A DNA stretch of 64,000 bases, from NCBI GenBank assembly GCA_030595795.1, contig JAUVCH010000002.1, forward strand, positions 7,216 to 71,215, in the 5' to 3' direction. This document shows positions 17,027 through 55,516 of this stretch, one piece after another (the first letter of the stretch is position 1; each line of letters begins with the position of its first letter). Origin of the DNA: Gammaproteobacteria bacterium. Its GTDB lineage: Bacteria > Pseudomonadota > Gammaproteobacteria > GCA-001735895. Under the pieces are notes generated by a model. It was not told where the DNA came from. It did not search any database and saw nothing but the letters and a program-made list of their open reading frames with translations. A program made the position numbers and the translations under genes.

Positions 17027-19282
17027 TTATTTCTGCGCCATATTTATTATGTGTGGGTTTTCCGACAATGACTTTGACTTTATTCTCAGCTGGCATTGGG
17101 AAAAATAAAAACGGGAAGGTCCATCATGAGGAAAGCTCCTTAATATCGACTTAAATTCTTCGGAAGCCTTTTTCCATTCCGCCCGCATAAACATATCAAA
17201 GCCTTTAGCAAATCGCTCGCAAAGTTCATTTTGTTGTGTGCTAGCTTCATTTGACAAACTAAGTATTTCGATGATGGGCAAGGGTTCGGTTTTCCCCACA
17301 AAAACAAAATGCCCTATGGGGCGAGTCAGTAAATAATCGATGCCTTCAATTTGGGGTTCAGTGGCGAGTATTTGCGTACCCACATGTTTATTTAACCCTT
17401 CAATGCGCGATGCGGTATTAGCACAGTCGCCTACGATACTGTAAACAAAGTGACCGCCACCGCCGGAGTGTCCGACATAAACTTCACCGGTTTCCATACC
17501 GATGCGCAAAGACGCATCAAAAGCATCGTGCCGGGCCTTGAAGTCCTCGATCGCATCAGCAGCTTGCAATGACGCGAGGATAGGCTTTTCACGTACGTCG
17601 ATATCAGATTCATCGCCGGTCCAGGCACACATAATGGCATCCGCGCGGAATTCGGTAACCGTGACATCATGATTACGCAAAGGTTGTGCCAGCGTGTCAA
17701 AATAATCATTTAAAAATTCAGCCAGTTCTCCGGGGGCCATGTTTTCGGCAATAGTCGAAAACCCTGCCATGTCGGTGGCCAGGCAGGTGCTAAAGATGAC
17801 CTGATTAATGTTTTCAGGAATAAGGTCGTTGCCGGTTAAGGCTTTTGATACTTCTTCGGGTACATAAAGACTAATCGCTTCGCTGATGTGTTTTACCTTG
17901 TGGCGCTGTTGTAAATACTGGGCTATCAAGCCGACAAACAACGCCAGAGGGAACTGAACTAGTAAGGGTATCGACAGGGGTAGCCATAGATAATCATTAT
18001 TGAACAGGGTTTGCGCATAAATCACATACCCACTAACAGCCAGAACCGAGACAGGCACGCCTATAATGGCGGGTGCCAGGTAAATTAACAGGCTGATCAT
18101 GAGCCCGAAACTGAATATAAAAATCAGATAGTTTTCAATTTTTGGGACTCTCAGGGACTGATTGTGTCGTAAGTTTCCGTATGCAGTTGCAGCTATCTCG
18201 ACACCGCTAAGATCAACACCATTTTCGTTGGTAAAAACAGTATAAAAGCGATCAGGCTGGCCAGGGTCATACAGATCCGAGAAGCCTACGAATACTACCT
18301 TGTTGGTCATATCCAGATCTTTGGCTGAGGTATTAGCGTCGGGGCCATTGATAACCGCGTAGTAGGGAACGCTTTTGATCGATCCGGGCGTTCCATAAAA
18401 ATTTAGATAACGTTCGTTCCTTCCAAGGTACATAGAAGTCAGCGAATGGAGTAATTGCTGAATTTCCTCGGATTCTTGCCCGACCCAGGGTTGTTGTAGT
18501 TCTCGTATCAAATTGTTTGCCAGGGTCGGAGATCGAGAAAGAGTACTCCGGATTCCAGTCATGAACCCATGCAGAGATTCTGCATCAGATATTTCGGCTG
18601 CAGATTGAGGGATTTTAAACTCCTGAGTCAATCGACTGTTCTTGAGTAAACGGTAAAATTGATTGTAGGCCTTTAGCGCTTGTACCTGTAATGCCACGGC
18701 GGGCATCGTAGGTGCTCCATACGCGCTATCTTTAAAGACCCAAGATTCGTAAACGGCCGCCTCTTGCTTGGGTAAGGGAAAAGGCCCCAGGCCTCGAGCG
18801 GCTTCCGACAGGACCGGCACAGGTGACAGAAGCTGTTCTACCCACACACTGCCACTGATTTTCCCCGATTTATCTTCAATCGGATTACCTTTGCCGGTCA
18901 GATACTGAAAAAGCACGACTCGTTCCGAGCGCTTTACTGAATCAGCAAAAATCTTTTCGTCACCTGGCGAACGTGGTTTGTGGAAATTAATATCAAAAAC
19001 AATAGTGGATGCGCCCAGTTTCACCAGAGCATCGACCAGCTTTCCGTGAATTGATCGGGGCCAGTCCCGGGGTAGCGGGGGGATATTCAGTTTCTTGCTG
19101 GTTAAACCATTGATTGCAATTACAACAGTTTCCGGCGGGGAGGGGATTTCACCGCGAATGGAAAATAACCAGCCCAGTCCAATGCTTCTTTCAAAAACTG
19201 TTCCGTAGGGTGACAGAGCTAACAGGCTACCAATCAAACCTATCGTCATGCCAAGGAGCAGACCTTTAATACCGCGTCGCAT
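17027..19282 (-). CDS. CHASE2 sensor domain-containing class III adenylate/guanylate cyclase
   Basis: 751 aa. N-terminal TM, then a large periplasmic CHASE2-like domain. Three TM helices follow (approx. aa 380-450). C-terminal cyclase homology domain (FSTCLATDMAGFS...GDCANTASRIEGLNK). Confidence 0.8.
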   Translation of the reverse strand: MRRGIKGLLLGMTIGLIGSLLALSPYGTVFERSIGLGWLFSIRGEIPSPPETVVIAINGLTSKKLNIPPLPRDWPRSIHGKLVDALVKLGASTIVFDINFHKPRSPGDEKIFADSVKRSERVVLFQYLTGKGNPIEDKSGKISGSVWVEQLLSPVPVLSEAARGLGPFPLPKQEAAVYESWVFKDSAYGAPTMPAVALQVQALKAYNQFYRLLKNSRLTQEFKIPQSAAEISDAESLHGFMTGIRSTLSRSPTLANNLIRELQQPWVGQESEEIQQLLHSLTSMYLGRNERYLNFYGTPGSIKSVPYYAVINGPDANTSAKDLDMTNKVVFVGFSDLYDPGQPDRFYTVFTNENGVDLSGVEIAATAYGNLRHNQSLRVPKIENYLIFIFSFGLMISLLIYLAPAIIGVPVSVLAVSGYVIYAQTLFNNDYLWLPLSIPLLVQFPLALFVGLIAQYLQQRHKVKHISEAISLYVPEEVSKALTGNDLIPENINQVIFSTCLATDMAGFSTIAENMAPGELAEFLNDYFDTLAQPLRNHDVTVTEFRADAIMCAWTGDESDIDVREKPILASLQAADAIEDFKARHDAFDASLRIGMETGEVYVGHSGGGGHFVYSIVGDCANTASRIEGLNKHVGTQILATEPQIEGIDYLLTRPIGHFVFVGKTEPLPIIEILSLSNEASTQQNELCERFAKGFDMFMRAEWKKASEEFKSILRSFPHDGPSRFYFSQCQLRIKSKSLSENPHIINMAQK

Positions 19283-19630
19283 AAGTTTAGTGTCTATAGT
19301 TTTTAAATATTATTTTAGTCGCATCACTCACCGATGCGAAATCTACCTTACATGAAATTTTTTTTCAGCGTTAAGGTTTTAGCGAAAAGAAATTGCTATC
19401 AGTCCGCTGAATCCGGATTTTATATTTATCACTTATTACGAATAATAAATCAGTTAACATTATTATTTAGGTAGGTTGTCTATGACAATCGCTATCCGTT
19501 GTATAATCCTTTAGGGGTAGAGCACTGCTCCAATATTCGTCATATGATTTAGTTATAAAAATATAATCAAAAAAAACAAATAAGAATGCCATGCAAATGC
19601 AGGCATCGAAGTTTATTGGAGGGGGACGCG
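19283..19630. promoter_or_regulatory. AT-rich divergent promoter region between the CHASE2 cyclase and the FecR/TPR/barrel gene
   Basis: About 300 bp, over 70% AT. Perfect TATAAT at about 19508 preceded by TTGTCT/TGACAA-like -35 candidates. GGAGGGGGA Shine-Dalgarno at 19618-19626. Confidence 0.4.
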
Positions 19631-22600
19631 TTGTTTACTTTATCGGTTCGATTTTATTCGAAATTAATCACTATATTCTTCATAACTCTGGTCGGTATAT
19701 CTGTCAGCAGACCAGCTATGGCCGCATGCGCCGAACTAGCAGGGAAATTCGTCTCCATCCAGGGCCAGGTAGATGTTCAGGCTCAGAATGGAAGTGCCTG
19801 GGATCTCGCCAAACTTGATGACGCTCTATGCGAAGGGGACAGTGTAAGGGTTGGTAAAGAAAGTCGAGCGGCTCTTTCTCTTGCAAATGATGCCGTACTG
19901 CGAATCGATGAAAACACAACCGTTCGGCTGGTTGATATAAATCAGGAGAAAAAAGAAAAATCACTTCTCGAACTGATATCGGGAGCAATCCAGTCTTTCA
20001 GCCGTAAACCTCGTGAGTTAGTAGTCAATACGCCATATCTCAATGGTTCTATCGAGGGTACTGAATTTATTATTAAAGTCGCTGACAACCAGACCCAGAT
20101 TACCGTATTTGAAGGTTTTGTCGTCGCGGCTAATGACCAGGGGGAAGTTCGGCTGGAGAGCGGACAGTCGGCTTCGGCCAGCGAGGGTAGCGCACCGGTA
20201 TCTCGAACCGTGATCAATCCCCGGGATCAGGTGCAGTGGGGATTATATTATCCGCCAATACTGTCGGCGGAAGGCGGCGCCAACGAACAGCGAGCCGCCG
20301 AATTACTGGCTTTAGGACAGATTAACGAAGCCAGTCAGATACTTGAAAGTGGTGCGGATTCACCGGTTGGGTTAGCCCTGCAGTCGGTAATTGCAATCAC
20401 TCTGAATGACCTGGAGGGGGCTCAGAATTACGCCGATAGAGCCGCTGCCCTGGACGCCAGCAGTGTCGCAGTAGCTATTGCTATGTCTTACGTGAAACAG
20501 GCACGGTTCGAACTAGAGCAGGCTCTGGCGGTCATTGACGCGGCGTTGCAGAAAGAATCTGGCAATGCATTACTGTGGGCTCGCGCTGGAGAATTGCGCC
20601 TGATGTCGGGGTTGAGCAGTGAGGCATTATCAGCAGCGAATAAAGCCAGCGAACTGGATCCGAATTCATCGCAGGCTAATCTGGTCAATGGTTTTGCTGC
20701 TTTATCGATTTTCGATACCGATCAGGCCGCGAGTAGTTTCAAAAATGCCATTGCACTCAATTCAGCTGATCCGATGGGTTACCTGGGACAGGGGTTGACT
20801 AAAATTAGCCAGGGTGATCTAGAAACCGGTCGCCATGACCTCGAAGTCGCTGTGAGCCTCGGTTCCAATAGTGCAATACTCCGCTCTTATCTGGGTAAAG
20901 CCTATTACGAAGAAAAGCGTAGTCCGCTGGAAGATCAGCAGTATAAAATTGCCCAACAACTCGATAGCAACGACCCGACCCCGTGGTTCTATCAGTCGAT
21001 TTCACAGCAAACACAAAATAATCCGGTAGAGGCCTTACAGAGTCAGCAAAAAGCGTTTGAGTTGAATGATAACCGCGCAGTTTATCGTTCGCGACTGTTG
21101 CTTGATTCTGACCGCGCAGCGCGCGGTGTTAGTTTGGGTCGGGTTTATAACGATCTGGGGTTTGAGCAACAAGCATTGGCGGAAGGTTGGAAATCAGTTA
21201 ATACCGATCCAACCAATTCCTCGGCGCATTTGTTTCTAGCCGACTCTTATGGAGCGTTACCGCGCCATGAAATCGCCAGAGTCAGCGAAGCGCTACAGGC
21301 TCAGATGTTGCAACCGGTTAATGCAGCTCCCGTTAGCCCAACCAAAGCGGAAGGTAAATTATTACTAGCTGCCAGTGGCCCCGCAGCAGTTGGATTCAAT
21401 GAATACAATGCGCTATTTGACCGTAATCAGACCAACGCGGTGATCAGTGGTATGGCGGGTGAGCATGGAACCAGTAGTGCAGAAGCTATAGTCTCGGGCT
21501 TACACGGTAAAACGGCATTCAGTGCAGGTATTTATCACTTTGAGACTGACGGTTTTCGTGACAGTGCTTTTCAGGAAGATGATATTGGCAACCTGTTCGT
21601 CCAGCATGATTTTAGTCTGGATACTAGTGTTCAGCTCGAATTCCGCTCGAGAGAAACCGAATACGGTGATGTTCGCCAGAAATTTCATGAGCATAGTATT
21701 TATCCAGACAAGTTAATTGTCGAGGAAACCGATACGCTACGTCTGGGTGCACGGCATTCTTTTGCGCCGGGGTCGGTGCTTCTTGTGTCACTAACTGATC
21801 AGGAAGGTAGCTTTAACGAGACCGATGAACCCTTCCCTCAGCCGGGGGTTCTCTTTTCCGAACTCGATAGCCCTGATCTTGAAGCAAAAGGCAGCGAGCT
21901 CCAGTACCTGTATCGTTCGCCTAAATTCAATGTTACTGCTGGTGTAGGTAATGTTGATTCTAAGGAGGATGTAACGAATAGAGCTTTACTTGATTTAGGC
22001 TTTTTTGGTGGTCCGCCTGGACTTTTATTGCCAATAGAAAGCGTCATTGAGGCAGATATCAAGCACGATAATGCTTATGCGTATTCGAATATCAATCTGA
22101 ACAACCAGATGATCATGACGCTTGGCGTTAGCTATGATGATGTTGATAGTGAATTTCTTGGAGAACCTGTAACGAAAACTAATCCAAAATTTGGCATGAC
22201 ATGGACACCGAATTCACAGACTACGGTGCGTTTGGCATCCTTCGAAACCATGAAACGTACCTTGTCTACGCAACAGACTCTGGAACCGACCCAGGTAGCT
22301 GGTTTTAATCAATTCTTCGATGACTATAACCTGACCGAAACAAAGCGCACAGGTATTGCGGTTGATTACAAATTTAATGCTAACCTGTCAGGTGGGCTGG
22401 AAATTTCAAAGCGGGAACTGGAGATACCCTACGTTGATTTGACCGCTTCACCACCCACGATAGAGGCTGCTGACTGGGAAGAGCGAACGAACCGAGCCTA
22501 TCTCTACTGGACACCCAATAAACAATGGGCACTGCGGGCTGAATATCTGTTTGAAAAACTGGAAAGGGGAGGCGGCACCTTTGTTGATGGTGTCATTGAA

Positions 22601-22921
22601 TCGGAGACGCATCGAGTTCCTTTTGGAGTCAGTTACTTTCACTCCGACAGGCTAAGTGCCTCTCTGACAGCGACTTATTATGATCAGGAGGGAGTATTCG
22701 GTGGTTTCTGGACCACGGATGCCATAGAGCCGGGTGAAGATGATTTCTGGATCGTCGATGCTGCGATTAATTACCTGCTACCCGGGAGGCGAGGTTTCGT
22801 CACAGTCGGTGCGACTAATTTAACCGATGAGGATTTCTCGTATTTCGACACGGACACGAATAACGCCAGCATACAACCCGCAAGCATGGTGTATGGCAAG
22901 TTGACATTATCGTTCCAATAA
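19631..22921 (+). CDS. Secreted FecR-domain / TPR / C-terminal beta-barrel protein (putative outer-membrane sensor or scaffold)
   Basis: ORF 19586..22921. Preferred start is TTG 19631, 8 nt after GGAGG, giving a classic signal peptide MFTLSVRFYSKLITIFFITLVGISVSRPAMA|A. Residues about 45-170 are FecR-like (VRVGKESRAALSLANDAVLRIDENTTVRL...GTEFII). Residues about 230-560 are TPR-like. The C-terminal about 500 aa has an alternating beta-strand pattern and ends KLTLSFQ, like an OM barrel. Confidence 0.65.
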   Translation: MFTLSVRFYSKLITIFFITLVGISVSRPAMAACAELAGKFVSIQGQVDVQAQNGSAWDLAKLDDALCEGDSVRVGKESRAALSLANDAVLRIDENTTVRLVDINQEKKEKSLLELISGAIQSFSRKPRELVVNTPYLNGSIEGTEFIIKVADNQTQITVFEGFVVAANDQGEVRLESGQSASASEGSAPVSRTVINPRDQVQWGLYYPPILSAEGGANEQRAAELLALGQINEASQILESGADSPVGLALQSVIAITLNDLEGAQNYADRAAALDASSVAVAIAMSYVKQARFELEQALAVIDAALQKESGNALLWARAGELRLMSGLSSEALSAANKASELDPNSSQANLVNGFAALSIFDTDQAASSFKNAIALNSADPMGYLGQGLTKISQGDLETGRHDLEVAVSLGSNSAILRSYLGKAYYEEKRSPLEDQQYKIAQQLDSNDPTPWFYQSISQQTQNNPVEALQSQQKAFELNDNRAVYRSRLLLDSDRAARGVSLGRVYNDLGFEQQALAEGWKSVNTDPTNSSAHLFLADSYGALPRHEIARVSEALQAQMLQPVNAAPVSPTKAEGKLLLAASGPAAVGFNEYNALFDRNQTNAVISGMAGEHGTSSAEAIVSGLHGKTAFSAGIYHFETDGFRDSAFQEDDIGNLFVQHDFSLDTSVQLEFRSRETEYGDVRQKFHEHSIYPDKLIVEETDTLRLGARHSFAPGSVLLVSLTDQEGSFNETDEPFPQPGVLFSELDSPDLEAKGSELQYLYRSPKFNVTAGVGNVDSKEDVTNRALLDLGFFGGPPGLLLPIESVIEADIKHDNAYAYSNINLNNQMIMTLGVSYDDVDSEFLGEPVTKTNPKFGMTWTPNSQTTVRLASFETMKRTLSTQQTLEPTQVAGFNQFFDDYNLTETKRTGIAVDYKFNANLSGGLEISKRELEIPYVDLTASPPTIEAADWEERTNRAYLYWTPNKQWALRAEYLFEKLERGGGTFVDGVIESETHRVPFGVSYFHSDRLSASLTATYYDQEGVFGGFWTTDAIEPGEDDFWIVDAAINYLLPGRRGFVTVGATNLTDEDFSYFDTDTNNASIQPASMVYGKLTLSFQ

Positions 22922-23144: not shown

Positions 23145-23909
23145 ATGATGAAGAAAGTAATATTCTTGAGTGTTTTTCTATGCGTAGTAAGTACGGGGGC
23201 CCATGCTTGGTCTTACGGTGTGAGTTGGTATTCGGATATTGACTTCACGTTTGCCGCAAAAGGCAATAAATTAAAACTCGCGAATGGTAATTTCGTGGTC
23301 AGCGAGGTCTACGCTTTCAATTATGTGTCTATATGTATTGCTACCAATTCGAATAAAAAGACGATTCATAATGGTCAAGGTAATAATGGTGACAGCGTTG
23401 TAATCGCCGAGTTAGGTGAGGAGAATACAGACGATTCTGGTAAAAATAAAGGATCCTTCTTTGCAACGGGAACGCAATCATTGGTAAATATGTACCAGCA
23501 TTATAGTCTTTTTAATGGAATAAGCGGGGATGGATCGTTGAGTTGTTATGAAGGTGATAGTCCGTTAAATGCTCCGACGGGAAATTGCACGGAGGAAGAT
23601 AGAAGCCTGTCGCATTTGGAACACTTTTGTCATGCCGAAGCAGATCAAAAGGTTGAATATAAAGATAACCTGTATATGCCGGAAATCGCAGTGTATGTCC
23701 GGGTTGTAGAGGGTGATGGGGTTAATCCGGTACTAGTTGATGGTGAATATATCGTCAAAGCGCACGGCATAGCCGAATGTACATACACTGGAGCCGTATC
23801 GCTGGATAATGGCGATTTTGTTACCGAAACGAAGCCTACGGACTGCGATGTAAACGAATATCCATTGTCAGTAGAGGATCCACGCTTTGATCATATTCTC
23901 AGTTTTTAA
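23145..23909 (+). CDS. Secreted hypothetical protein (8 Cys) in an AT-rich islet
   Basis: 254 aa with signal peptide MMKKVIFLSVFLCVVSTGAHA. Local GC about 35% versus about 50% elsewhere. No family recognised. Confidence 0.5.
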   Translation: MMKKVIFLSVFLCVVSTGAHAWSYGVSWYSDIDFTFAAKGNKLKLANGNFVVSEVYAFNYVSICIATNSNKKTIHNGQGNNGDSVVIAELGEENTDDSGKNKGSFFATGTQSLVNMYQHYSLFNGISGDGSLSCYEGDSPLNAPTGNCTEEDRSLSHLEHFCHAEADQKVEYKDNLYMPEIAVYVRVVEGDGVNPVLVDGEYIVKAHGIAECTYTGAVSLDNGDFVTETKPTDCDVNEYPLSVEDPRFDHILSF

Positions 23910-24769: not shown

Positions 24770-25600
24770 ATGTTCGATACCAACCCTTTTTACGATTTGT
24801 CAGGTTTCCTGACGCCGGCCATTATGCAAATGTATGTTGTAGCCATGTTCCTGGCTGTGATCGCCGGTACCATCATCGATACGATTCACAAGAAGAGCGC
24901 TCAGTACTTCTTTGAGAACGCTCAAAAGGCTCAGAAATCTGCCACGCGTACCGTAACTGGCGGCGAGAAGGTTTCATTGGCTATTTCTACCGTGGCCAGC
25001 GAGGTGCTGACTTCTTCTGAGTTTGCCAACCCAAAACGTCGCATGTCGCATTTACTGACTATGTATGGTTTCATTATTTTCCTTGTCACTACTGTGGCCA
25101 TGATTTTTGCTTACCCGACACCTGCTGAAGCCGCCCCTGAAATACTCACGGTTCTGTGGCATGTCGGTGCTCTAATGGTCTGTGTCGGCGGCTACTGGTT
25201 CTGGTTCTTCATCCGTTGCGATGTAAATTCCGAGGGTAAGCCCTGGTATCAGCTGGTTCGTGCTGACCTGTTCATCCTTTCATTGTTGATGACCGCCACC
25301 TTTGCCCTGCTGTGGTCTTACTTCGGCGGTATTTTACTGTTCACCATCTTCATTCTGGCCAGTACCTTTTTGTTTACTACCGTATTGTGGTCAAAGTTTG
25401 CTCATATGTTCTTCAAGCCAATGGCGGCCTACCAGAAGAAAATCACCAAGGCAGATGGTTCGCAAGAGAATCTTCCCGATTTGGGTGAGCTTACAGATCC
25501 TGATCTTCAAGCCAGATTTCCAGATATCCCGACATATATGGGTGAAAAACCAGTCCATATGGGACTTGGAATAAAGCGTGAATCTCCAAACCATTTCTAA
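24770..25600 (+). CDS. aprM: Adenylylsulfate reductase membrane anchor AprM
   Basis: 276-aa, 5-TM protein immediately upstream of aprB and aprA, the arrangement described for aprMBA in sulfur-oxidising gammaproteobacteria. Identity inferred from synteny plus topology. Confidence 0.65.
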   Translation: MFDTNPFYDLSGFLTPAIMQMYVVAMFLAVIAGTIIDTIHKKSAQYFFENAQKAQKSATRTVTGGEKVSLAISTVASEVLTSSEFANPKRRMSHLLTMYGFIIFLVTTVAMIFAYPTPAEAAPEILTVLWHVGALMVCVGGYWFWFFIRCDVNSEGKPWYQLVRADLFILSLLMTATFALLWSYFGGILLFTIFILASTFLFTTVLWSKFAHMFFKPMAAYQKKITKADGSQENLPDLGELTDPDLQARFPDIPTYMGEKPVHMGLGIKRESPNHF

Positions 25601-25652
25601 TCAAACAATTGCTGAATTGTAATTAACCAATAATTTAAGAAAGAGGAATATT

Positions 25653-26135
25653 ATGCCTACATTTGTATATATGACTCGTTGCGATGGTTGTGGACATTGC
25701 GTTGATATCTGTCCTTCAGACATCATGCACATCGACAAAACCACGCGTCGTGCGTACAACATCGAACCAAACATGTGCTGGGAATGCTACTCATGTGTTA
25801 AAGCCTGCCCTCACAATGCCATCGACGTTCGTGGTTACGCAGACTTTGCGCCACTAGGTCACTCGGTACGCGTTATCCGTGATGAAGAAAAAGGTGTTAT
25901 TGCGTGGCGGATCAAATCCCGTAACGGCGAAACCGACATGAATCTGCTCGCACCTATCACAACAAAGCCCTGGGGTACGGCAATTCCAAAACTAGCTGAT
26001 GCACCTGCACCCAGCCAGGAAATGCGTGATAGCCAATTGTTATTTAACGAGCCTAAATATATTCGTATGGATGAGGGCGATATCCATACATTGGAGTCTA
26101 ACAAGCTCACGATGAAAGTTGGAGTTTACTACTAA
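25653..26135 (+). CDS. aprB: Adenylylsulfate reductase beta subunit (iron-sulfur) AprB
   Basis: 160 aa. MPTFVYMTRCDGCGHCVDICPSDIM...CWECYSCVKACPHNAI two [4Fe-4S] motifs plus the AprB-specific C-terminal tail. Confidence 0.9.
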   Translation: MPTFVYMTRCDGCGHCVDICPSDIMHIDKTTRRAYNIEPNMCWECYSCVKACPHNAIDVRGYADFAPLGHSVRVIRDEEKGVIAWRIKSRNGETDMNLLAPITTKPWGTAIPKLADAPAPSQEMRDSQLLFNEPKYIRMDEGDIHTLESNKLTMKVGVYY

Positions 26136-28000
26136 TGCCTAAAACTATCATAGAAGACAATATCGACGTCCTGGTCGCGGGCGCTGGCCTCGGTGGAACC
26201 GGTGCGGCTTTCGAAGCACGCTACTGGGGTAAAGATAAGAAGATCGTTATCGCCGAAAAAGCCAACATCGACCGTTCCGGCGCTGTGGCACAAGGGCTAT
26301 ACGCGATCAACTGTTACATGGGAACTCGTTTCGGTGAAAACAATCCTGAAGATCACGTGCGTTATGCACGTATGGATTTAATGGGTATGGTTCGCGAAGA
26401 CCTGTTGTTTGATATGGCCAGGCACGTCGACTCAACCGTGCACCAGTTCGAAGAATGGGGTCTGCCAATCATGCGCGATCCTAAGAGTGGATCCTATCTA
26501 CGCGAAGGACGCTGGCAGATCATGATTCACGGCGAGTCCTACAAGCCTATCGTGGCTGAAGCCGCAAAGAAATCGGCTGACAAGGTATTCAACCGTATTT
26601 GTGTCACCCATCTGCTAATGGATGATGCCAAAGAAAATCGGGTTGCCGGAGCTGTCGGCTTCAACGTACGTACTGGCGACTATCACGTATTCAAATCTAA
26701 AGCCGTTATCGTTGGTGCCGGTGGCGCATCCAACATCTTCAGGCCACGTTCGGTTGGTGAAGGTGCGGGTCGTGTCTGGTATGCACCCTGGTCCTCGGGC
26801 TCAGCCTATGGTTTGATGATCAATGCTGGCGCGAAAATGACCCAGATGGAAAACCGTATTGTACTGGCTCGATTCAAAGATGGTTACGGCCCGGTTGGTG
26901 CTTACTTTCTACATTTAAAAACTTACACTCAAAACTGTAATGGTGAAGAGTACGAGTCAAAGTGGTTTCCTGAACTGACGAAAATGGTGGGTAAGGAATA
27001 CCTGGATACAGAAGGTCAGCATTTATCGCATAAGCCAATTCCAACCTGTCTGCGTAACCATGCATTTATCAATGAGGTGAATGCTGGTCGTGGTCCTATC
27101 CACATGGTTACCATGGAAGCCTTCCAGGATCCACATCTGGAAGAGATCGGCTGGCACAACTTCCTCGGTATGACCATTGGTCAGGCTGTATTATGGGCGG
27201 CAACTGATGTCAATCCGAAGTACGAGAACCCAGAACTGACAACCTCCGAGCCGTACGTCATGGGTTCCCACGCAACCGGTAGTGGTGCCTGGTGTTCCGG
27301 TCCTGAAGATATCTCTCCTGACGAGTATTTCTGGGGCTATAACCGTATGACTACCGTCGAAGGTCTATTCGGTGCCGGTGACGCTGTTGGCGGTACACCG
27401 CATGCATTCTCTTCAGGCTCATTTACCGAAGGTCGCCTGGCTGCCAAGGCTGCCTGTAAGTACATTGACGATGGTAAGGCCGATGGTATTCGTGTTTCTC
27501 AGGAGCAGATCGATCGTCGCAAGAAAGAGATCTTCAAGCCAATGGAGCATTACAAGGTTTACCGTAACGAAATAACAGCGGGAAGTGTTAACCCTAACTA
27601 CATCAACCCGCGCCAGGGTCTTGATCGCTTGCAGAAGCTGATGGACGAGTACGCCGGTGGTGTAATAGTTAACTACATGACCAACGATAAGCTTTTGCAC
27701 ATCGGTCTGAAGAAATTGAAACTCCTGGAAGAGGATCTTGAGAAGGTTGCAGCAGAGGACATTCACGAACTACTTCGTGCATGGGAACTGAAGCATCGTC
27801 ATCTTACCTCTGAGTCTGTCGTGCAACATACCCTGTTCCGCAAGGAAACCCGTTGGCCGGGTTACTACTACCGCGGTGATGCGATGAAACTGGATGATGA
27901 GAACTGGCATGTACTGACAGTTTCCCATCGTGATCCAAAAACTGGTGAATACACCATGGAAAAAGCACCTCTTTATCACCTTGTAGACGATAAAGAATAG
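26135..28000 (+). CDS. aprA: Adenylylsulfate reductase alpha subunit (FAD) AprA
   Basis: 621 aa. DVLVAGAGLGGTGAAFEA FAD fold, fumarate-reductase-family flavoprotein. Start overlaps the aprB stop (ATGA). Confidence 0.9.
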   Translation: MPKTIIEDNIDVLVAGAGLGGTGAAFEARYWGKDKKIVIAEKANIDRSGAVAQGLYAINCYMGTRFGENNPEDHVRYARMDLMGMVREDLLFDMARHVDSTVHQFEEWGLPIMRDPKSGSYLREGRWQIMIHGESYKPIVAEAAKKSADKVFNRICVTHLLMDDAKENRVAGAVGFNVRTGDYHVFKSKAVIVGAGGASNIFRPRSVGEGAGRVWYAPWSSGSAYGLMINAGAKMTQMENRIVLARFKDGYGPVGAYFLHLKTYTQNCNGEEYESKWFPELTKMVGKEYLDTEGQHLSHKPIPTCLRNHAFINEVNAGRGPIHMVTMEAFQDPHLEEIGWHNFLGMTIGQAVLWAATDVNPKYENPELTTSEPYVMGSHATGSGAWCSGPEDISPDEYFWGYNRMTTVEGLFGAGDAVGGTPHAFSSGSFTEGRLAAKAACKYIDDGKADGIRVSQEQIDRRKKEIFKPMEHYKVYRNEITAGSVNPNYINPRQGLDRLQKLMDEYAGGVIVNYMTNDKLLHIGLKKLKLLEEDLEKVAAEDIHELLRAWELKHRHLTSESVVQHTLFRKETRWPGYYYRGDAMKLDDENWHVLTVSHRDPKTGEYTMEKAPLYHLVDDKE

Positions 28001-46665: not shown

Positions 46666-47208
46666 ATGAAAAAAAAATATATCAATAAAATATCTCTCGT
46701 AATCGTGCTGATCGCCTTAAGCGTTGTGCCGTTCCTTGCGAAGGCGGCTGAAGTTACACAAGAGCAGATAAAAGGACTGGATGAACAGGTTCAGGATATC
46801 AAGGAAGATGTACTCGATCTAACAACCGAGCTAAGCCTGCTCGAAGAGAAGCTGTTATTTCCCTCCAATACTCAGGTCTCGCTGTTTGTTTCTCTCGATA
46901 GCGGTAAGAAGTTTGTACTTGATGCCATGCAGATTAAGCTTGACGACAAGGTTGTCGCCAAGCATTTATATACTTTCAAGGAGCTAGAGGCTTTAAGGTT
47001 AGGTGGTGTTCAGCGCATTTATACAGGTAATATCAACACTGGGGATCATTCGATGATAGCCAGTTTCTTAGGTCGCGATGCTTCGGGCGAGCAATTCAAA
47101 GGCGTGGCTGATTTTACGGTTAACAAAGCGGTTGGGCCAAAATTTGTCGAAATCAAAATTACCGGCGGCGACTCGGCTGATCAGACGATCAGTTTCCAAG
47201 ACTGGTAA
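46666..47208 (+). CDS. Secreted coiled-coil protein, first gene of the TPR/Ton-like cluster
   Basis: 180 aa. Signal peptide KISLVIVLIALSVVPFLAKA|AE, N-terminal coiled coil, C-terminal beta-rich domain. Reminiscent of the small periplasmic proteins that lead TonB2-type clusters. Confidence 0.5.
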   Translation: MKKKYINKISLVIVLIALSVVPFLAKAAEVTQEQIKGLDEQVQDIKEDVLDLTTELSLLEEKLLFPSNTQVSLFVSLDSGKKFVLDAMQIKLDDKVVAKHLYTFKELEALRLGGVQRIYTGNINTGDHSMIASFLGRDASGEQFKGVADFTVNKAVGPKFVEIKITGGDSADQTISFQDW

Positions 47209-47214
47209 GTAATC

Positions 47215-49290
47215 TTGAAGCGGAATGTAATATTTATCGCCGCTTTTTTCTGCAGCCTGTCAAGCTATGCGGCAAGTGGGCTAAAAGATGTCGAGCTGCG
47301 TGACCTGTATTTCGGCGAGGTGCTTTTTTATGCCTATCAGGATAAGTATTTTGAGGCGCTGGAACGGCTCGATAGCGAACTAATACAATATTACAGGGTA
47401 GACGAATCCAATCTTGACCCGTTATCCCAGAATCTGGGACAGGCCGAGTTTTCGGTCGGCGATATAGAATTGCAATATCGTATGGATAAGCGCGCTGGAA
47501 AAGCCATACAGGCGGTGCTCGGCAGCGGTATCAACCTGGCAATGCGGAATCAGGCTGCGTTGCAGCTGGCGCGAATGTATTTTCGTAAGAATGATGCGGA
47601 AAGAGCGCTATATGCGCTCGATCTGATACACAATAGAGTCGATATGACGAAGTACCCGGATAAGTCAGTCGACGATCTTCGGGGTGTAGAACCGGAAAAC
47701 TTCAAGATAGATGTTCTTTATCTGCGTGCTCTGGCCTATATTAGCACCGGGCAGTTTACCAATGCTGTCGAAATTCTCGATTCCCTGCGTAATGAAAAAT
47801 CAATAAAAGGCTATGTATTGTATAACCTGGGTATTGCGCTGATTCAGGCTCAACAGGAACTACAAGGATTAGAAGTACTCGATGAGCTGGGCATGCTGGA
47901 AACCCAGGATAAAAATCTGCAGGCACTCAAGGATAAAGCCAATTTAAAGATCGCCTATCGATTGCTCGATTCCGGCAATGCGGAGCAGGCTCGGATCTAT
48001 TTTCAACGAATTCGTCTCGATGGGCCATACTCAAATCAGGCGCTGCTGGGCGCAGGCTGGGCTGAAGCTGCACTGGATCGCTATGAGCGAGCTCTGGTAC
48101 CCTGGACAATTCTGCACAAAAGAGAAAAAACCAATCATTCGGTACAGGAATCGTTAATGTCGGTGCCTTATGCCTATGGGAAATTACAGGCCTACGGCAA
48201 ATCGGCCAATATGTATGCCGAGGCAATGGATATGTTTGCCTATGAAATATCCCGGCTCGACGACTCAATAAAGGCCATTCGAGGTGGAAAATTTCTCGAA
48301 GCATTAGTCGATGAGAAATCCAGACAGGATGAAAACTGGGTAGTAAATTTGCGAGAATTGCCCGATGCGCCGGAAACCCGTTATATCCTCGATCTGTTGG
48401 CATCGAGTGATTTTCAGACTTCGTATAATAACTACCGAGATTTGGCGGATTTGAAAGTACGAATCGAAACCTGGTTGGCTAACCTTAAGGTTTTCGAGGA
48501 AATTATTGATATTCGTCGAGCCTATCAAGAGCCTTTGCTACCCATAGTCGGGGAGCGTTTCGAGAAGATCGATGCCAGGGCAAAACTACGCCTGGAACAA
48601 CGAAACAGTCTGGCTGATAAAATTAAGAATATATTGATTGCGCCGCGACCAGATTTTCTGGCGACGGCTGACGAACGCCTGGCGTCGGATCGGGTAACGG
48701 CATTCGAGCAATACATAGCCGAGCACCCTGGAAAAGTCACTGGTGAACAGATCTATCGCGTTAAACGCCTGCGCGGTTTGTTGTCGTGGCGCTTGCAAAG
48801 CGAATATGACCAACGCCTAACCGAAGCTTATGATCATTTGTTGTCGCTGGATGAGACTACCGAGGCATTCAAAAAACGATATGGTTCTTTTATTCGTACC
48901 CGCCAGGCTGCGACGCAAAGTTATGAAGGATATCAATCAGTCATTAGACAGCTCCGCACCGGATTGTTTTCTGCGCAACGAAAGTTGAAAGGTGTTATGG
49001 CCAAACAGGGCAGGTTCCTCGAAACTATGGCGGAGAATGAGCTTGATCGTCGCCGCAAGCGCCTCGAAGATTATCAGATTAAGGCGCGATTTGCGTTGGC
49101 AGAAAACTATGACCGAGTAACCAAGGCGGATCAGGATAAGTTAATCGAGGAACAGAATCAGCTTCGGGAGGAAAAGCAAAAGCAACTTGAGCTTGAAAAA
49201 GAAGCCCAGAAGGCCGAGGAGTCGGCGCCATCAGCGGAAGATAGCTTAGATAAGGGTTCTTCAATTTTGAATAATGTACCCGCCAACTGA
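47215..49290 (+). CDS. Secreted TPR-repeat protein with C-terminal K/E-rich coiled coil
   Basis: 691 aa. TTG start, signal peptide, repeated A/L/Y-rich 34-residue helical-hairpin pattern. C-terminal EEQNQLREEKQKQLELEKEAQKAEE. Confidence 0.6.
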   Translation: MKRNVIFIAAFFCSLSSYAASGLKDVELRDLYFGEVLFYAYQDKYFEALERLDSELIQYYRVDESNLDPLSQNLGQAEFSVGDIELQYRMDKRAGKAIQAVLGSGINLAMRNQAALQLARMYFRKNDAERALYALDLIHNRVDMTKYPDKSVDDLRGVEPENFKIDVLYLRALAYISTGQFTNAVEILDSLRNEKSIKGYVLYNLGIALIQAQQELQGLEVLDELGMLETQDKNLQALKDKANLKIAYRLLDSGNAEQARIYFQRIRLDGPYSNQALLGAGWAEAALDRYERALVPWTILHKREKTNHSVQESLMSVPYAYGKLQAYGKSANMYAEAMDMFAYEISRLDDSIKAIRGGKFLEALVDEKSRQDENWVVNLRELPDAPETRYILDLLASSDFQTSYNNYRDLADLKVRIETWLANLKVFEEIIDIRRAYQEPLLPIVGERFEKIDARAKLRLEQRNSLADKIKNILIAPRPDFLATADERLASDRVTAFEQYIAEHPGKVTGEQIYRVKRLRGLLSWRLQSEYDQRLTEAYDHLLSLDETTEAFKKRYGSFIRTRQAATQSYEGYQSVIRQLRTGLFSAQRKLKGVMAKQGRFLETMAENELDRRRKRLEDYQIKARFALAENYDRVTKADQDKLIEEQNQLREEKQKQLELEKEAQKAEESAPSAEDSLDKGSSILNNVPAN

Positions 49291-52200
49291 TGTCTGTCAA
49301 AAATCACAAATGTATCAATTTCTGTAAAGCGGCATTAGTCCTGGCGCTAGTTTGGATGCTGGCGTCTTGCGCCACAGGAACCGACGGTACAACCCTGGCC
49401 AGTCTGGAAAATGTCGAATTCGAAGTAATTGACGAAAAGGTTACGGACAGTCTCGAAAAAGCACTGGCAAGCTATCAGGACTTTTTGGAGAATACCCCCG
49501 ATACCGAAATGACGCCGGAAGCCTTGCGTCGCCTGGCTGATCTGAAAATTCAGAAAGAGCAATTCAACGAGAATACTCAAATTATCGAGTCGGAGGCGCT
49601 CGCAACTACAAGCACCCAAAGAAACGTTACTGGTACAGAGACAAGCACTGTGCAGTCCATCACCGAGATAGAGATGCCGGAAACTGTGTCCGTGCCTGAT
49701 AATGGCAATACCTCAGAACAACAAAGCATTACCGATCAGGCGAGCCCTATTGCGGCAATCGACGAAAGTGATAAAGCTTTCGACGAAAGGGCGGGTGAGA
49801 AAATCGAAATCAGCGACTCTAGTCAACAGCTAGAACTGCCTGAAGACGAGAGTGCTGAGGTAGGACAGGACTTACAAACCGTCGGTGCAATGGAAGCCAT
49901 CGAGATATATAAGAACCTACTGAAAAACCATCCGTTATTTGAACGTAATGATCAGGTGGTTTACCAATTGTCGCGCGCTTATGAGGATACCGGGCAGATA
50001 GATATCGCCATGGATACGATCATATTGCTGCTTTCGAAATACCCGAACTCGCGTCATGTCGATGAATCGCAGTTTCGACTGGCTGAATTCTATTTCTCCC
50101 GTAAAAAATATCTCGATGCCGAAGAGTCATACCAGGCTGTGGCGGCGCGTGGAGAAGACACGGAGTTTTATGAGTTATCACTTTATAAACTCGGGTGGTC
50201 TTATTTCAAACAGGAATTATATGAAGAAGCATTACAGGCTTTTATCAAAATGCTGGACTATAAAATCGAGAATGGTTTTGAACTGGATAATATTGAAAGC
50301 CAGATAGATGGAAAAAGGGTTGAAGATACTTATCGAGTTATCAGTTTAAGTTTCTCCTACCTCGAAGGGCCTCAGTCCATTGTCGAATTTTTTAACCAAA
50401 ATGGCCCTAGATCTTATGAGTCGAGTATCTATAGCCACCTGGGAGAATACTACTTTTCTAAGAGGCGTTTTGCCGATGCAAGCAATACCTATAAGACTTT
50501 TATTGAGCGTAATCCTCTATCCGCCGAATCGGCTTATTTCAGTATTCGTATTATCGAAATTTACGACAAAGGTGGTTTTCCCAAGCTGGTTATAGATACC
50601 AAAAAGGCCTTCGCCAAAACATATAGCCCCGATTCCACCTACTGGACATATTTCGACATTAATGAACATCCAGATATCCGCTTCTATGTGAAGACTAATC
50701 TGACTGATTTGGCGAATCACTATCATGCTTTGTATCAGAATAAGAAGTTGGAGAAGGCAAAGGGTGAAAATTATGAGGAGGCGATATACTGGTATCGGGA
50801 ATTTCTGGCCTCTTTCTTTGATGACTCCGAAGCTCCGGGTCTCAATAACCAACTGGCCGGTTTGATGCTAGAGCAAAAGGACTTTTTCCAGGCGGCGGGT
50901 GAATACGAGCGCACTGCGTACGAATATCCACCCCATGATGGATCGTCCGGTGCGGGCTATGCGGCTGTCTATGCGTATCGAGAGTACTATAAAGTTGTTG
51001 AACAATCACAGAGATACAATATCAGCCGGGAAATTGTGCGCAGTTCGATACGATTTTTTGAGGTATTTCCCGATCATAAACATGCCCCGGTGGTACTTGT
51101 TGCCGCTGTAGAAGACCTATATGGACTCGAAGATTTTGAACGTGCCATCGTCTATGGTCAGCGTGCAATCGAAACTTACCCCCGAGCCGACCGGAAATTG
51201 CTGCGTTCTGCCTGGATGGCTGTGGCGCATTCTTCATTTAATATCGCTAATTACCAGGGGGCTGAAATTGCCTATAGCGAAACACTGATTCTTACCGATA
51301 TAAATGACAAGAGTTACGAATCACTTAACGAAAACCTGGCTGCCTCTATTTATAAACAGGGTGAACAGGCGCTCAAGCTGGAAGACCATCAGTTAGCCGC
51401 CGATCATTTCCTGCGGGTCGCTAAAGTCGTGCCCAAATCTAAAATTCGTCCGACAGCCGAATACGACGCCGCCACTTCGTTGTTAATACTGAAACAGTGG
51501 AAGAATGTTGCCAACTTGCTTGAAGGCTTCAGAAAACGTTTTCCTCAGCATAAACTGCTACCGGATATCACCAAAAAACTGGCAATTGTTTATAAGGAGG
51601 ATGGTCGTTATTTGCTATCGGCAGCAGAATTTGAGCGTATAGAAAGAGAAAATCCAGAAAACGAAGCCTTGCGCCGCGAAGCCTTATACCAGGCTGCTGA
51701 ACTGTATGACCGGGCTGACGCTAAAGGTAGAGTTTTATTGACCTATCAAAAACTGGTTAACTATTTTCCCGATCCAATCGAAGAGGCGCTAGAAACACGC
51801 CAGAAAATGGCCGATATTTATCAGCAGCAGGGTAATCAAATTGAATATCTGGCTCAGCTCGAAAGAATTGTCGAGATCGACGCCACCGGTGGCAGTGGAC
51901 GTACAGACAGAACCCAATATCTTGCCGCGCATGCCGCGTTGGTATTAGCAGTTCCCAAATGGGAAGCATTTACGCGAGTGGCCCTTGTGGAGCCTTTCAA
52001 GGCCAATTTGGCTAAAAAGAAAAAGCGAATGAGTATTGCTATCGATTCGTTTGCAAAGCTGGTTGATTATCAGGTTGGCGACGTTACTGCTGCGGCAACT
52101 TTTTACCTTGCCGAAATATATTTTGACTTTAATGTGTCTCTGGTCGAATCAGAAAGACCGACTAACCTGAATGATGAAGAACTGGAAGAATATGAGCTGA

Positions 52201-52469
52201 TTATCGAAGATCAGGCTTATCCTTTTGAGGCAAAGGCTATCGATGTTCATGAAAAAAATATGGAATTACTGGATATTGGGGTCTATAACGAATGGATCGA
52301 TAAGAGTATCGCAAAACTATCGGTGTTGTTGCCCGCGCGATACGCTAAAACTGAGCAAGACAGTACTGTTATCACTTTGATACAGCCTCCGAATATCGTC
52401 AATGCAGCGGTTAATGAAACCGAGGACTCGACAGTAATCGAATCCTTACCGGAACCGGTGGAGCAATAG
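49290..52469 (+). CDS. Large TPR-repeat lipoprotein with acidic disordered N-terminal region
   Basis: 1059 aa. Lipobox MLASC, about 200-aa D/E/S/T-rich segment, then about 800 aa of TPR-like repeats. Start overlaps the upstream stop. Confidence 0.6.
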   Translation: MSVKNHKCINFCKAALVLALVWMLASCATGTDGTTLASLENVEFEVIDEKVTDSLEKALASYQDFLENTPDTEMTPEALRRLADLKIQKEQFNENTQIIESEALATTSTQRNVTGTETSTVQSITEIEMPETVSVPDNGNTSEQQSITDQASPIAAIDESDKAFDERAGEKIEISDSSQQLELPEDESAEVGQDLQTVGAMEAIEIYKNLLKNHPLFERNDQVVYQLSRAYEDTGQIDIAMDTIILLLSKYPNSRHVDESQFRLAEFYFSRKKYLDAEESYQAVAARGEDTEFYELSLYKLGWSYFKQELYEEALQAFIKMLDYKIENGFELDNIESQIDGKRVEDTYRVISLSFSYLEGPQSIVEFFNQNGPRSYESSIYSHLGEYYFSKRRFADASNTYKTFIERNPLSAESAYFSIRIIEIYDKGGFPKLVIDTKKAFAKTYSPDSTYWTYFDINEHPDIRFYVKTNLTDLANHYHALYQNKKLEKAKGENYEEAIYWYREFLASFFDDSEAPGLNNQLAGLMLEQKDFFQAAGEYERTAYEYPPHDGSSGAGYAAVYAYREYYKVVEQSQRYNISREIVRSSIRFFEVFPDHKHAPVVLVAAVEDLYGLEDFERAIVYGQRAIETYPRADRKLLRSAWMAVAHSSFNIANYQGAEIAYSETLILTDINDKSYESLNENLAASIYKQGEQALKLEDHQLAADHFLRVAKVVPKSKIRPTAEYDAATSLLILKQWKNVANLLEGFRKRFPQHKLLPDITKKLAIVYKEDGRYLLSAAEFERIERENPENEALRREALYQAAELYDRADAKGRVLLTYQKLVNYFPDPIEEALETRQKMADIYQQQGNQIEYLAQLERIVEIDATGGSGRTDRTQYLAAHAALVLAVPKWEAFTRVALVEPFKANLAKKKKRMSIAIDSFAKLVDYQVGDVTAAATFYLAEIYFDFNVSLVESERPTNLNDEELEEYELIIEDQAYPFEAKAIDVHEKNMELLDIGVYNEWIDKSIAKLSVLLPARYAKTEQDSTVITLIQPPNIVNAAVNETEDSTVIESLPEPVEQ

Positions 52470-52473
52470 GGTT

Positions 52474-53085
52474 ATGATAAAAACATTTCATACTGGGGTG
52501 GTGATATTAGGCTGTTTGATCTTAATTTCCTGTGCCGGGGGTCAGGCACCGCGTGTTGAAAAAGCTGCGGCAGTAAAGTTATCCCCACCGCCAGAAGATT
52601 CGGCATATATTAATCTGGACGCAGATATTGAGTCGGATTTCCTCGATGCAGTAGACAGGATGGAAAATAGTGACTATGTATCGGCAATAGAAAAGCTGGA
52701 ATCGGTTATAGGTCGCGAAAAACGGTTGATTGCACCGTTTGTCAATATTGCGATTGCGTATCGCAAAACAGGTGAAGTTGAGCAGGCAGAAAAAAATCTG
52801 GCCAAAGCCCTGGAGTTGGACCCTGTGCATCCCGTTGCGAATAACGAGCTGGGTTTAATTTACCGTCAGGCCGGAAAATTTGAGGAAGCCAGAGCGGTCT
52901 ATGAGCTGGTGATCAAAAACCATCCAGATTCCACTGCGGCAATGATTAATCTAGGCGTATTATGTGATTTGTATATGCACGATTATGAATGTGCCCTCGA
53001 ACAATTTGAGCGTTATCTGGCGCTAAATCCGGATGATAAGAAAATTTTCATCTGGGTAGCTGATGTAAAACAAAGAGTAAAATAA
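52474..53085 (+). CDS. Small TPR-repeat lipoprotein
   Basis: 203 aa. Lipobox LILISC, three to four clear TPR units. Confidence 0.6.
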   Translation: MIKTFHTGVVILGCLILISCAGGQAPRVEKAAAVKLSPPPEDSAYINLDADIESDFLDAVDRMENSDYVSAIEKLESVIGREKRLIAPFVNIAIAYRKTGEVEQAEKNLAKALELDPVHPVANNELGLIYRQAGKFEEARAVYELVIKNHPDSTAAMINLGVLCDLYMHDYECALEQFERYLALNPDDKKIFIWVADVKQRVK

Positions 53086-53104
53086 TAGCGGAGGTACTAA
53101 TATT

Positions 53105-53389
53105 ATGTTAATTAGAATTCTATTTAGTTTAGTAATTGCCGGAGTAACCTTGCAAGCGCCCGTCATGGCCCAGGAAAAAAAAATTGATTCCGACGTTAAG
53201 GAACTATCTGGCATCTCGATCATAGGTAATCAGGAAGCGCCCAAATCGCTTTACATTATACCCTGGCAAAACTCCGAAGTTGGGGTGGCCAGCAGTTTAC
53301 AATCAGGTCTGTTTGACGACAGTATGAAACCTTTGTCCAAAGAAGTGTTTCTGAGAGAGCTTAATTTTTACGAATTAAGTCATAATTGA
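53105..53389 (+). CDS. Small secreted protein of the Ton-like cluster
   Basis: 94 aa with signal peptide. Confidence 0.4.
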   Translation: MLIRILFSLVIAGVTLQAPVMAQEKKIDSDVKELSGISIIGNQEAPKSLYIIPWQNSEVGVASSLQSGLFDDSMKPLSKEVFLRELNFYELSHN

Positions 53390-53431
53390 TAATCGATATA
53401 ATATGAATAGTGACACATTGAGGGTTTCGTA

Positions 53432-54442
53432 ATGAGTGAACACAATACCAATCAGAGTGAGCTGGATACTTCAGTAGACACAGAGGCTCCGAGCGGTCAG
53501 GAAAATTTGAGCGAGCCGAGCACTACGGACGGTAATGAGATTACCGAATCTCCAGATGTAGCAGAAATTCTGGAGTCTTCTGGAGTCGTGGATGCGGCTG
53601 GTGGCTTCGACCCCCTAAGCTATGTTGAAACCATCGTGTCGTTTTTCCAGACTGGTGGTGCGTTTATGTATCCAATACTGATCGTCTTATCGGTGGGGTT
53701 AGCGATATCAATCGAGCGTTACATCAAACTCACTTACGAGCGCGGGATTAATCGCAAAATGTGGAATAAGCTGCAGCCAGTTCTGGCTGAAGCAGATTTT
53801 GACACGGCTCGAGAATTAGTTGCCCTCGACGATAAATCGACCATCAGTAAATTAATGTCTATGGGCCTGGCAAGAGAAGGGCTGGTCAGGCGAAGGGACG
53901 ATATCGAAATCGCCATGGAAGAAAGTATGATGGAAATTATTCCTCAACTCGAAAAACGCACACCTTACATCGCGTTGTTTTCAAATATTTGCACCCTGCT
54001 TGGACTGCTTGGTACGATTATGGGCCTGATCGAGGCTTTCACCGCTGTCGCGAATGCCAATCCTGCAGAAAAAGCGGATTTGCTATCAGCAAGTATATCG
54101 GTTGCGATGAATACTACCGCTTTTGGTTTGATGGCGGGTATCCCTCTTTTGATAATCCATGCATTTTTGACTTCGCGAACCGGAGAAATAATAGACAGCC
54201 TGGAAATGGCGTCGGTTAAAACACTGAATGTCATCACCTCTGCCAGTAAGCGTAGGGGTGATAAGAATCTATCTCCCCCAGAAGTAACAATGAGTGATTT
54301 TACGGATACGGGTACTTTTATGGCTAATGTTGAAAAAGATGTTACCCGGGTTAGTGAATCGACCGCAACACCAGGTGTTGAAGGTTCAGCATCAGAGCCA
54401 GGCGTAGCTGCTGATACAGATGTGCCTAAAAAGCCCGATTAA
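53432..54442 (+). CDS. MotA/TolQ/ExbB proton-channel family protein with acidic N- and C-terminal extensions
   Basis: 336 aa, 3 TM helices. Conserved ExbB core ...ALFSNICTLLGLLGTIMGLIEAF...AMNTTAFGLMAGIPLLIIHAFL. Confidence 0.8.
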   Translation: MSEHNTNQSELDTSVDTEAPSGQENLSEPSTTDGNEITESPDVAEILESSGVVDAAGGFDPLSYVETIVSFFQTGGAFMYPILIVLSVGLAISIERYIKLTYERGINRKMWNKLQPVLAEADFDTARELVALDDKSTISKLMSMGLAREGLVRRRDDIEIAMEESMMEIIPQLEKRTPYIALFSNICTLLGLLGTIMGLIEAFTAVANANPAEKADLLSASISVAMNTTAFGLMAGIPLLIIHAFLTSRTGEIIDSLEMASVKTLNVITSASKRRGDKNLSPPEVTMSDFTDTGTFMANVEKDVTRVSESTATPGVEGSASEPGVAADTDVPKKPD

Positions 54443-55510: not shown

Positions 55511-55516
55511 CTCACC

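Follow-up and report, generated by a model that had tools for sequence, protein, structure and literature searches.

Introduction

The CHASE2 adenylate cyclases CyaK, CyaD1 and CyaD2 of Sinorhizobium meliloti require NsrA, an outer-membrane β-barrel protein described as their co-receptor, in order to perceive their signals (PMC7529298, PMC13001267). NsrA is needed for the perception of externally added signals such as nodule extracts and the purified uL2 protein (PMC7529298). Here we describe a gene from a 64,000-nucleotide (nt) stretch of the genome of a Gammaproteobacteria bacterium (assembly GCA_030595795.1, contig JAUVCH010000002.1, positions 7,216 to 71,215 of the forward strand; hereafter the window). 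The gene, located at 19631..22921 on the plus strand of the window, probably encodes an NsrA-family outer-membrane protein that is paired with the adjacent inner-membrane CHASE2 cyclase. An earlier, sequence-only reading of this DNA had drawn attention to the FecR domain, TPR array and β-barrel-like region of the product and to a likely TTG start codon.

FecR-type and CHASE2 proteins have been found side by side in other bacteria as well. In the Burkholderia BiofilmReg operon and at Pseudomonas aeruginosa PA4035/PA4036, a LysM-FecR protein is encoded beside a CHASE2 histidine kinase (PMC5192318), and a Campylobacterota cluster comprises a CHASE2 cyclase, a FecR protein of the outer membrane, and also a TPR protein (PMC9239204). 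The Burkholderia proteins carry a LysM peptidoglycan anchor where the window protein has TPR repeats and a barrel, whereas the TPR part of the Campylobacterota cluster is described as a separate protein, unlike that of the window. In FecA/FecR and PupB/PupR cell-surface signalling the two folds reside on separate proteins, a TonB-dependent transducer and an anti-sigma regulator of the inner membrane, while the window protein joins both via TPR repeats in one outer-membrane polypeptide and has no plug, no TonB box region, no Pfam match to a signalling domain and no anti-sigma domain. Compared with FecR-type anti-sigma factors, it shares the FecR periplasmic domain, but this domain directly follows a signal peptide, and neither the cytoplasmic anti-sigma domain nor the single membrane anchor is present. 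The output of FecA/FecR is a sigma factor, in contrast to the CHASE2 sensor and cyclic nucleotides of the window system, and no extracytoplasmic function (ECF) sigma factor (sigma-70 r2/r4) was found among the scanned window neighbours. BcsC, PgaA and PelB resemble the window protein in that TPR repeats in the periplasm lead to a barrel in the outer membrane, yet they differ in barrel class, strand number and genomic context and in the absence of a FecR domain; none of the three appeared among the top hits as a sequence or fold match.

Relationship to NsrA

For the comparison with NsrA, its properties were drawn from later papers and from the sequence of pSymB. The latter was reached by a tblastn search of plasmids, and open reading frames (ORFs) were called directly on the PLSDB records. 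Strain AK21 was used for NsrA, since the copy of strain B399 is truncated. In AK21 pSymB, an ORF of 1224 amino acids (aa) with FecR and TPR matches lies directly upstream of a 649-aa CHASE2 and cyclase gene, in line with the location reported for cyaK, and we took it to be NsrA (SMb20775). This ORF (L002:6869-10540) aligned with the family profile in hhalign at 99.9% (E 5e-35) over 976 columns, spanning 37-1093 of our family alignment (A1) and 50-1207 of the pSymB ORF. In BLASTP, collinear matches fell in the FecR domain (7e-18), in the TPR region (6e-7) and at the barrel's end (3e-4). Both proteins have a signal peptide, a FecR domain, TPR repeats and a C-terminal barrel in the same order, and each gene adjoins one for a CHASE2 class III cyclase. 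The window protein is homologous to NsrA along its whole length, and its gene is a new member of the NsrA family, a large and little-studied group.

The two systems also differ in several respects. The window protein is ~130 residues shorter than NsrA, mostly in the TPR region, and the window gene pair is divergent, whereas nsrA and cyaK are arranged in tandem. The host of the window system is apparently a sulfur-oxidising gammaproteobacterium, as suggested by its AprBA genes and its relatives, while that of NsrA is a plant symbiont; the signal perceived by the window protein must therefore differ from that of NsrA. In B399 (L001 6869-9154) the nsrA ORF ends at 761 aa and cyaK follows ~250 nt later, so that ~1.1 kb encoding most of the barrel is missing as compared with the AK21 counterpart (L002 6869-10543). 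Either B399 naturally carries an allele without a barrel, or its assembly is in error at this point.

The CHASE2 partner

Directly upstream of the NsrA-like gene and in divergent orientation (17027..19282, minus strand) lies a gene for a 751-aa inner-membrane sensor composed of CHASE2 and class III nucleotide cyclase domains (Pfam: CHASE2 E 4e-21, Guanylate_cyc E 4e-11). This gene had been missed by the sequence-only reading, and it is the key to the function of its neighbour. A CHASE2 gene was found within 3.6 kb in 58 of 80 related loci, and it was adjacent in 44 of the 49 loci whose flanks each extended for 3 kb or more. The arrangement varied: the CHASE2 gene was located upstream on the same strand at 33 loci, downstream on the same strand at 12, upstream and divergent, as in the window, at 7, and downstream and convergent at 6. 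Clustering of all neighbouring ORFs revealed no conserved neighbour besides the CHASE2 gene. The next two neighbour clusters were rejected as, by their coordinates, they consisted of antisense ORFs inside the cyclase gene.

The output domain of the partner is usually a cyclase, but three loci (L006, L007, L014) have a SpoIIE/PP2C phosphatase in its place and one (L075) has a Ser/Thr kinase. The constant element of the partner is CHASE2, while the output domain varies, and the NsrA-like module is hence not specific to cyclic-nucleotide signalling. The window cyclase (domain at aa ~495-680) retains its catalytic Asn and Arg as well as the two Asp residues that bind metal. Its specificity pair is Glu/Ser, with the Glu residing within the motif EFRADAIM, as opposed to Lys/Ser in S. 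meliloti CyaK; adenylate cyclases carry Lys at the first position. The Glu/Ser pair is guanylate-cyclase-like, and the product may be cyclic GMP (cGMP) or both nucleotides.

Predicted structure

An AlphaFold2 model was built from 98 homologues, with a predicted local distance difference test (pLDDT) score of 88.3 and a predicted template modelling (pTM) score of 0.85. Residues are numbered throughout from the TTG codon at 19631. The first 31 residues (MFTLSVRFYSKLITIFFITLVGISVSRPAMA; 19631..19723, plus strand) have the sequence features of a signal peptide with predicted cleavage after A-M-A. The N-terminus reads MFTLSVRFYSK-LITIFFITLVGISV-SRPAMA, the next A following the cleavage site. Its n-region is basic, its hydrophobic core spans 14 residues and its cleavage motif is of the A-x-A type, in keeping with the textbook signal peptide that the sequence-only reading had described for the TTG start. 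In the model this region forms a helix (aa 4-24) of low pLDDT. All homologues compared have a leader of similar kind, after which comes a near-invariant Cys; this is consistent with a protein that is exported via its signal peptide. We also considered Cys33 as a lipoprotein Cys and rejected it: homologues differ in the residues ahead of it (A, V, E, D or S), which therefore make up no lipobox. The near-invariant pair Cys33/Cys67 was assigned to the FecR-type domain.

Pfam searches of the window protein returned FecR (E 2e-13) and TPR repeats and gave no match in the last 500 residues. The FecR match lies inside a predicted FecR-type periplasmic β domain (aa 36-193; 19736..20209, plus strand). 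It is followed by a TPR solenoid (aa 217-480; 20279..21070, plus strand) of ~20 helices, about ten TPR repeats, and by a helical "neck" at the TPR-barrel junction (aa 481-599; 21071..21427, plus strand), with helices at aa 493-575 in the model. The C-terminal part (aa 600-1095; 21428..22915, plus strand) is modelled as a plugless β-barrel of 496 residues and 22 strands of the TonB-dependent-transporter type, whose strands are joined by alternating short periplasmic turns. The DSSP string holds 24 barrel strand segments, and the number 22 is our own count after merging two pairs, 766-778/780-788 and 799-807/810-824, each split by a single kink. As the FecR domain, the TPR arm and the neck all precede the barrel, they lie on the periplasmic side. 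The proposal that FecR, TPR and β-barrel are combined in one secreted polypeptide thus withstood the check by structure prediction, with Pfam, AlphaFold2 and fold searches in agreement.

In the fold searches the barrel superposed on TonB-dependent transporter barrels. BcsC and PgaA, to which the protein had initially been likened, were absent from both hit lists, and together with the barrel type and the lack of linkage to a synthase gene this does not sustain the likeness. Of the features of TonB-dependent transporters, the 22-strand barrel is there, while the N-terminal plug with its TonB box is not: the Plug domain (PF07715) had no match in the window protein nor in the Pfam lists of 120 homologues, and the ~120 residues ahead of the barrel are all helical in the model. 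We infer that the neck, a near-invariant loop at aa 875-902, or both may close the barrel. A profile search of PDB sequences returned generic TPR proteins only, and hence no family member has a solved structure. The protein ends with GKLTLSFQ, so the C-terminus KLTLSFQ was read correctly before. The family (C-terminus at window 22898-22918) lacks the terminal aromatic residue that outer-membrane proteins usually have; of the 98 members of alignment A1, 78 end with a hydrophobic residue and Pro (consensus ...TLA[LFW]P), and the window protein ends with Phe-Gln.

Conservation and family size

As a measure of conservation we took, for each alignment column, the frequency of its commonest residue and averaged it over a region. 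The most conserved parts of the protein were the neck (0.86 for aa 479-599) and the near-invariant loop between strands 13 and 14 (KRTLSTQQTLEPTQVAGFNQFFDDYNLT; aa 875-902; 22253..22336, plus strand; 0.87); the barrel and FecR scored 0.61 and 0.60, respectively. Within the loop, whose sequence is TLEPTQVAGFNQFFDD, the residues Q882, T883, E885, T887, G891, F892, N893 and Q894 are invariant.

The sequence-only reading had called the architecture unusual and suggested a search for other genes of this kind. Such genes turned out to be plentiful, and FecR-TPR-barrel at ~1100 aa is the norm of a very large family. The full-length query gave more than 2585 protein matches, of which the best 120 were nearly all ~1100 aa long with the same Pfam content. 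When the neck and barrel were searched against 1.84 billion cluster representatives (50% identity), 1254 clusters reached E<=1e-30, and the number rose to 2399 with the threshold relaxed to E<=1e-10. Among the top 150 matches, most were ~1100 aa long and aligned at residues ~500-1130. Scanning species-representative genomes with the peptide patterns VAGFNQF[FY] and R[SA]YLGKAY[YF] yielded at least 562 species loci, which span Gammaproteobacteria, Desulfobacterota, Nitrospirota, Rokubacteria, Brocadia, Spirochaetes, Binatia and others. The closest relatives were from Gammaproteobacteria metagenome-assembled genomes. Homologues go by different names depending on the source ("TPR repeat protein", "TonB-dependent receptor", "FecR domain-containing protein"). 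The domain matches are far beyond chance, and the domains are kept in thousands of homologues.

Mosaic evolution of the family

Comparison of the window with its close relatives revealed that the two ends of the protein have different histories. The window protein and P0007, encoded at locus L083, are 94% identical in the FecR domain, 73% in the TPR array, 68% in the neck and 41% in the barrel, while their cyclases are 92% identical at the protein level. At the DNA level, identity to L083 is ~90% across the cyclase gene and 93-95% at 19767-20066; it then drops to ~75% by ~20070 and ~60% by ~20970, and stays at 50-55% from 21567 onward. The neck and barrel of the window protein are instead 73-90% identical to those of P0002, P0004 and P0005, whose FecR domains are only 60-64% identical to that of the window; the cyclase on the P0002 contig (L084) is 66% identical to the window cyclase. 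The P0007 barrel in turn is 80-82% identical to a separate group (P0060, P0101, P0063 and P0067). At least three further close pairs (L056/L082, L022/L076 and L051/L063) showed a similar replacement of the barrel, with 93% identity in the cyclase and 39% in the barrel for L056/L082, and 86-92% and 34%, respectively, for L022/L076.

Across 53 gene pairs, CHASE2 identity correlated with that of FecR (Spearman 0.41) more than with that of the barrel (0.15); the partial correlation was 0.39 for CHASE2-FecR given the barrel, -0.05 for CHASE2-barrel given FecR and 0.64 for neck-barrel, these figures being descriptive and given with no p-value as the sequence pairs are non-independent. The data fit an exchange of neck and barrel as a cassette, with the FecR end being matched to the cyclase.

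Gene model and start codon

The ORF at 19586..22921 (plus strand) comprises 1111 codons when counted from its ATG. Translation most likely starts at the in-frame TTG at 19631-19633, which gives a gene of 1096 aa (19631..22921, from the start through the stop codon). Eight nt 5′ of this TTG we could confirm the GGAGG noticed before, a putative Shine-Dalgarno sequence at 19618..19622 (plus strand). Locus L083, the closest relative with its 5′ end present, has an ATG that aligns exactly with the window TTG in the DNA alignment, and GAGGAGG precedes that ATG at the position aligned with the window GGAGG. An in-frame TGA is located four codons 5′ of the L083 ATG, so that an extension further upstream is blocked in that locus. 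The preference of the sequence-only reading for TTG is thereby strengthened, while its "45-aa leader" from ATG 19586 is in fact 45 nt, that is 15 codons, which leaves 26 residues before the hydrophobic core.

Public gene calls place the start at ATG 19586 (P0268, 1111 aa, the longest ORF) or at ATG 19718 (P0001, 1067 aa, an NCBI-derived call). ATG is the commoner start codon, gene callers chose both of these positions, and a start at 19586 would keep a usable signal peptide with a long n-region. On the other hand, no Shine-Dalgarno sequence was found 5′ of ATG 19586 in the window, neither ATG is kept in L083 (AAG at 19586 and CTA, encoding Leu, at 19718), where the TGA also stops any extension, and a start at 19718 would delete the whole signal peptide, which is present in every homologue. 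We thus regard a start at either ATG as improbable, and both public calls as probably wrong.

The NsrA-like gene and the cyclase gene share a divergent intergenic region (19283..19630, no strand assigned). Its half near the cyclase gene is ~85-90% identical to L083, and the half on the NsrA side is rearranged by indels. An Rfam scan of this region gave no match, and in a promoter and terminator scan sites were no commoner than in shuffled sequence. The palindrome GCATC-N7-GATGC (19321-19337) precedes the cyclase start codon by ~40 nt; its counterpart in L083 (~2251-2267) is a perfect 7-bp inverted repeat, GCATCAG-TTG-CTGATGC (two sequences compared). The palindrome could be an operator or a hairpin of the 5′ untranslated region.

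Genomic neighbourhood

Besides the CHASE2 cyclase gene, the neighbours of the NsrA-like gene in the window include genes for AprBA and for an ABC transporter of amino acids. Directly downstream (23145-23909, plus strand) is an ORF for a secreted Cys-rich protein of 254 aa with 7 Cys. In 25 of 65 loci (~40%) the NsrA-like gene is followed directly, on the same strand, by one for a secreted Cys-rich protein, perhaps a third component of the system that varies between loci. Downstream Cys-rich proteins were noted in 29 related loci, including L003-L007, L044, L046 and L062. They measure roughly 120-500 aa, mostly 200-350, and fall into several small groups without detectable similarity to one another; a Jackhmmer search with the 254-aa window ORF found a relative only in L003.

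Just downstream (24770-28000, plus strand) are genes for a QmoC-like membrane protein, AprB and AprA (adenosine 5′-phosphosulfate reductase), and these Qmo/Apr genes suggest a sulfur-oxidising or sulfate-reducing lifestyle of the host. Taken together with the Gammaproteobacteria metagenome-assembled genomes as closest relatives, they point to an uncultured gammaproteobacterium that oxidises sulfur. Elsewhere in the window, a run of same-strand ORFs (46666-56923, plus strand) encodes proteins of 180, 691 and 468 aa without a Pfam match, and also holds a 1059-aa ORF, a small TPR protein and a MotA/ExbB-family protein.

Proposed function and alternatives

Most likely the protein passes a cue from the surface or envelope on to the synthesis of cyclic nucleotides. 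A cue from the cell surface or the outer membrane would act on the barrel and neck, and the change would travel through the TPR arm and reach the FecR domain, which would in turn touch the periplasmic CHASE2 domain (aa ~30-385) of the neighbouring cyclase, a contact that would switch on the synthesis of cyclic AMP (cAMP) or cGMP in the cytoplasm. FecR would thus be the partner-specific end and the neck and barrel an exchangeable sensing cassette. The proposed relay role corresponds to that assigned by genetics to NsrA with CyaK, CyaD1 and CyaD2. Homology, structure and gene linkage come from our own analyses, and for the signalling mechanism we drew on S. meliloti genetics, linkage and co-variation.

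Several points weigh against this reading. Overall identity to NsrA is low (~22%), and the signal peptide was judged by eye from sequence features. Most predicted outer loops are short, at 4-15 residues, and offer little obvious ligand-binding surface, while a plugless 22-strand barrel would need some means of closing its lumen. A Pfam scan of ~40 window ORFs found no gene for a cyclic-nucleotide-binding effector. In all family members, the FecR-CHASE2 contact is deduced from gene linkage and from co-variation, the latter being descriptive as stated above.

The short loops would suit a different arrangement, in which the barrel does no more than anchor the protein in the membrane, the TPR arm together with the neck monitors the state of the envelope or binds a periplasmic protein, and FecR holds the cyclase off or on with no extracellular ligand involved. 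The most conserved parts of the protein are indeed the periplasmic neck and one loop, TPR arrays typically bind proteins, and the secreted Cys-rich protein encoded downstream in part of the loci could be a periplasmic partner. Yet NsrA is required for perceiving signals added from outside the cell (PMC7529298), and the repeated replacement of the barrel among close relatives suits a surface-exposed specificity module better, which makes a mere anchor rather unlikely in our view. Import of a substrate by a TonB-dependent receptor, as some public annotations of homologues have it, seems very improbable. The name "TonB-dependent receptor" is used by NCBI, homologues give weak PF00593 matches, and the barrel superposes on those of TonB-dependent transporters; against this stand the missing PF07715 match and the all-helical region before the barrel. 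As the N-terminus consists of the FecR domain and then the TPR repeats, there is also no TonB box region, and the conserved neighbour is a CHASE2 sensor and not an uptake system. Export of a polysaccharide by a TPR-porin of the BcsC/PgaA type would agree with the layout of periplasmic TPR repeats and C-terminal barrel. Polysaccharide-export TPR-porin barrels are smaller, with ~16-18 strands, as against the 22 counted in the window protein. Moreover, no glycosyltransferase or synthase genes were found among the scanned neighbours and the conserved partner is a signalling protein, so this function is hardly credible.

Returning to a relay from barrel to CHASE2 cyclase, we tentatively put forward a more specific version, which we hold to be possible though somewhat doubtful. 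The protein would be a TonB-independent relay from the outer to the inner membrane, with both Fec folds in one chain. The neck and the loop at aa 875-902 would replace the plug and gate the barrel, and the neck-barrel part would be horizontally exchangeable while FecR stays matched to CHASE2. If this were true, CHASE2 sensors with cyclase, phosphatase and kinase outputs would become surface-coupled receptors, and the orphan CHASE2 domain would gain its long-sought input.

For the window gene itself, the model is corrected to that of an exported protein with a TTG start, and functional annotation is now possible for homologues labelled "TonB-dependent receptor" or "TPR protein". The exchange of barrel cassettes offers a testable route to how specificity is encoded. 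CHASE2 is a widespread sensor domain without a known ligand, and its near-obligate pairing with NsrA-like proteins, which spans Gammaproteobacteria, Desulfobacterota, Nitrospirota, Rokubacteria, Brocadia and others and includes three output domains, suggests that the input of CHASE2 is a partner protein and not a small molecule.

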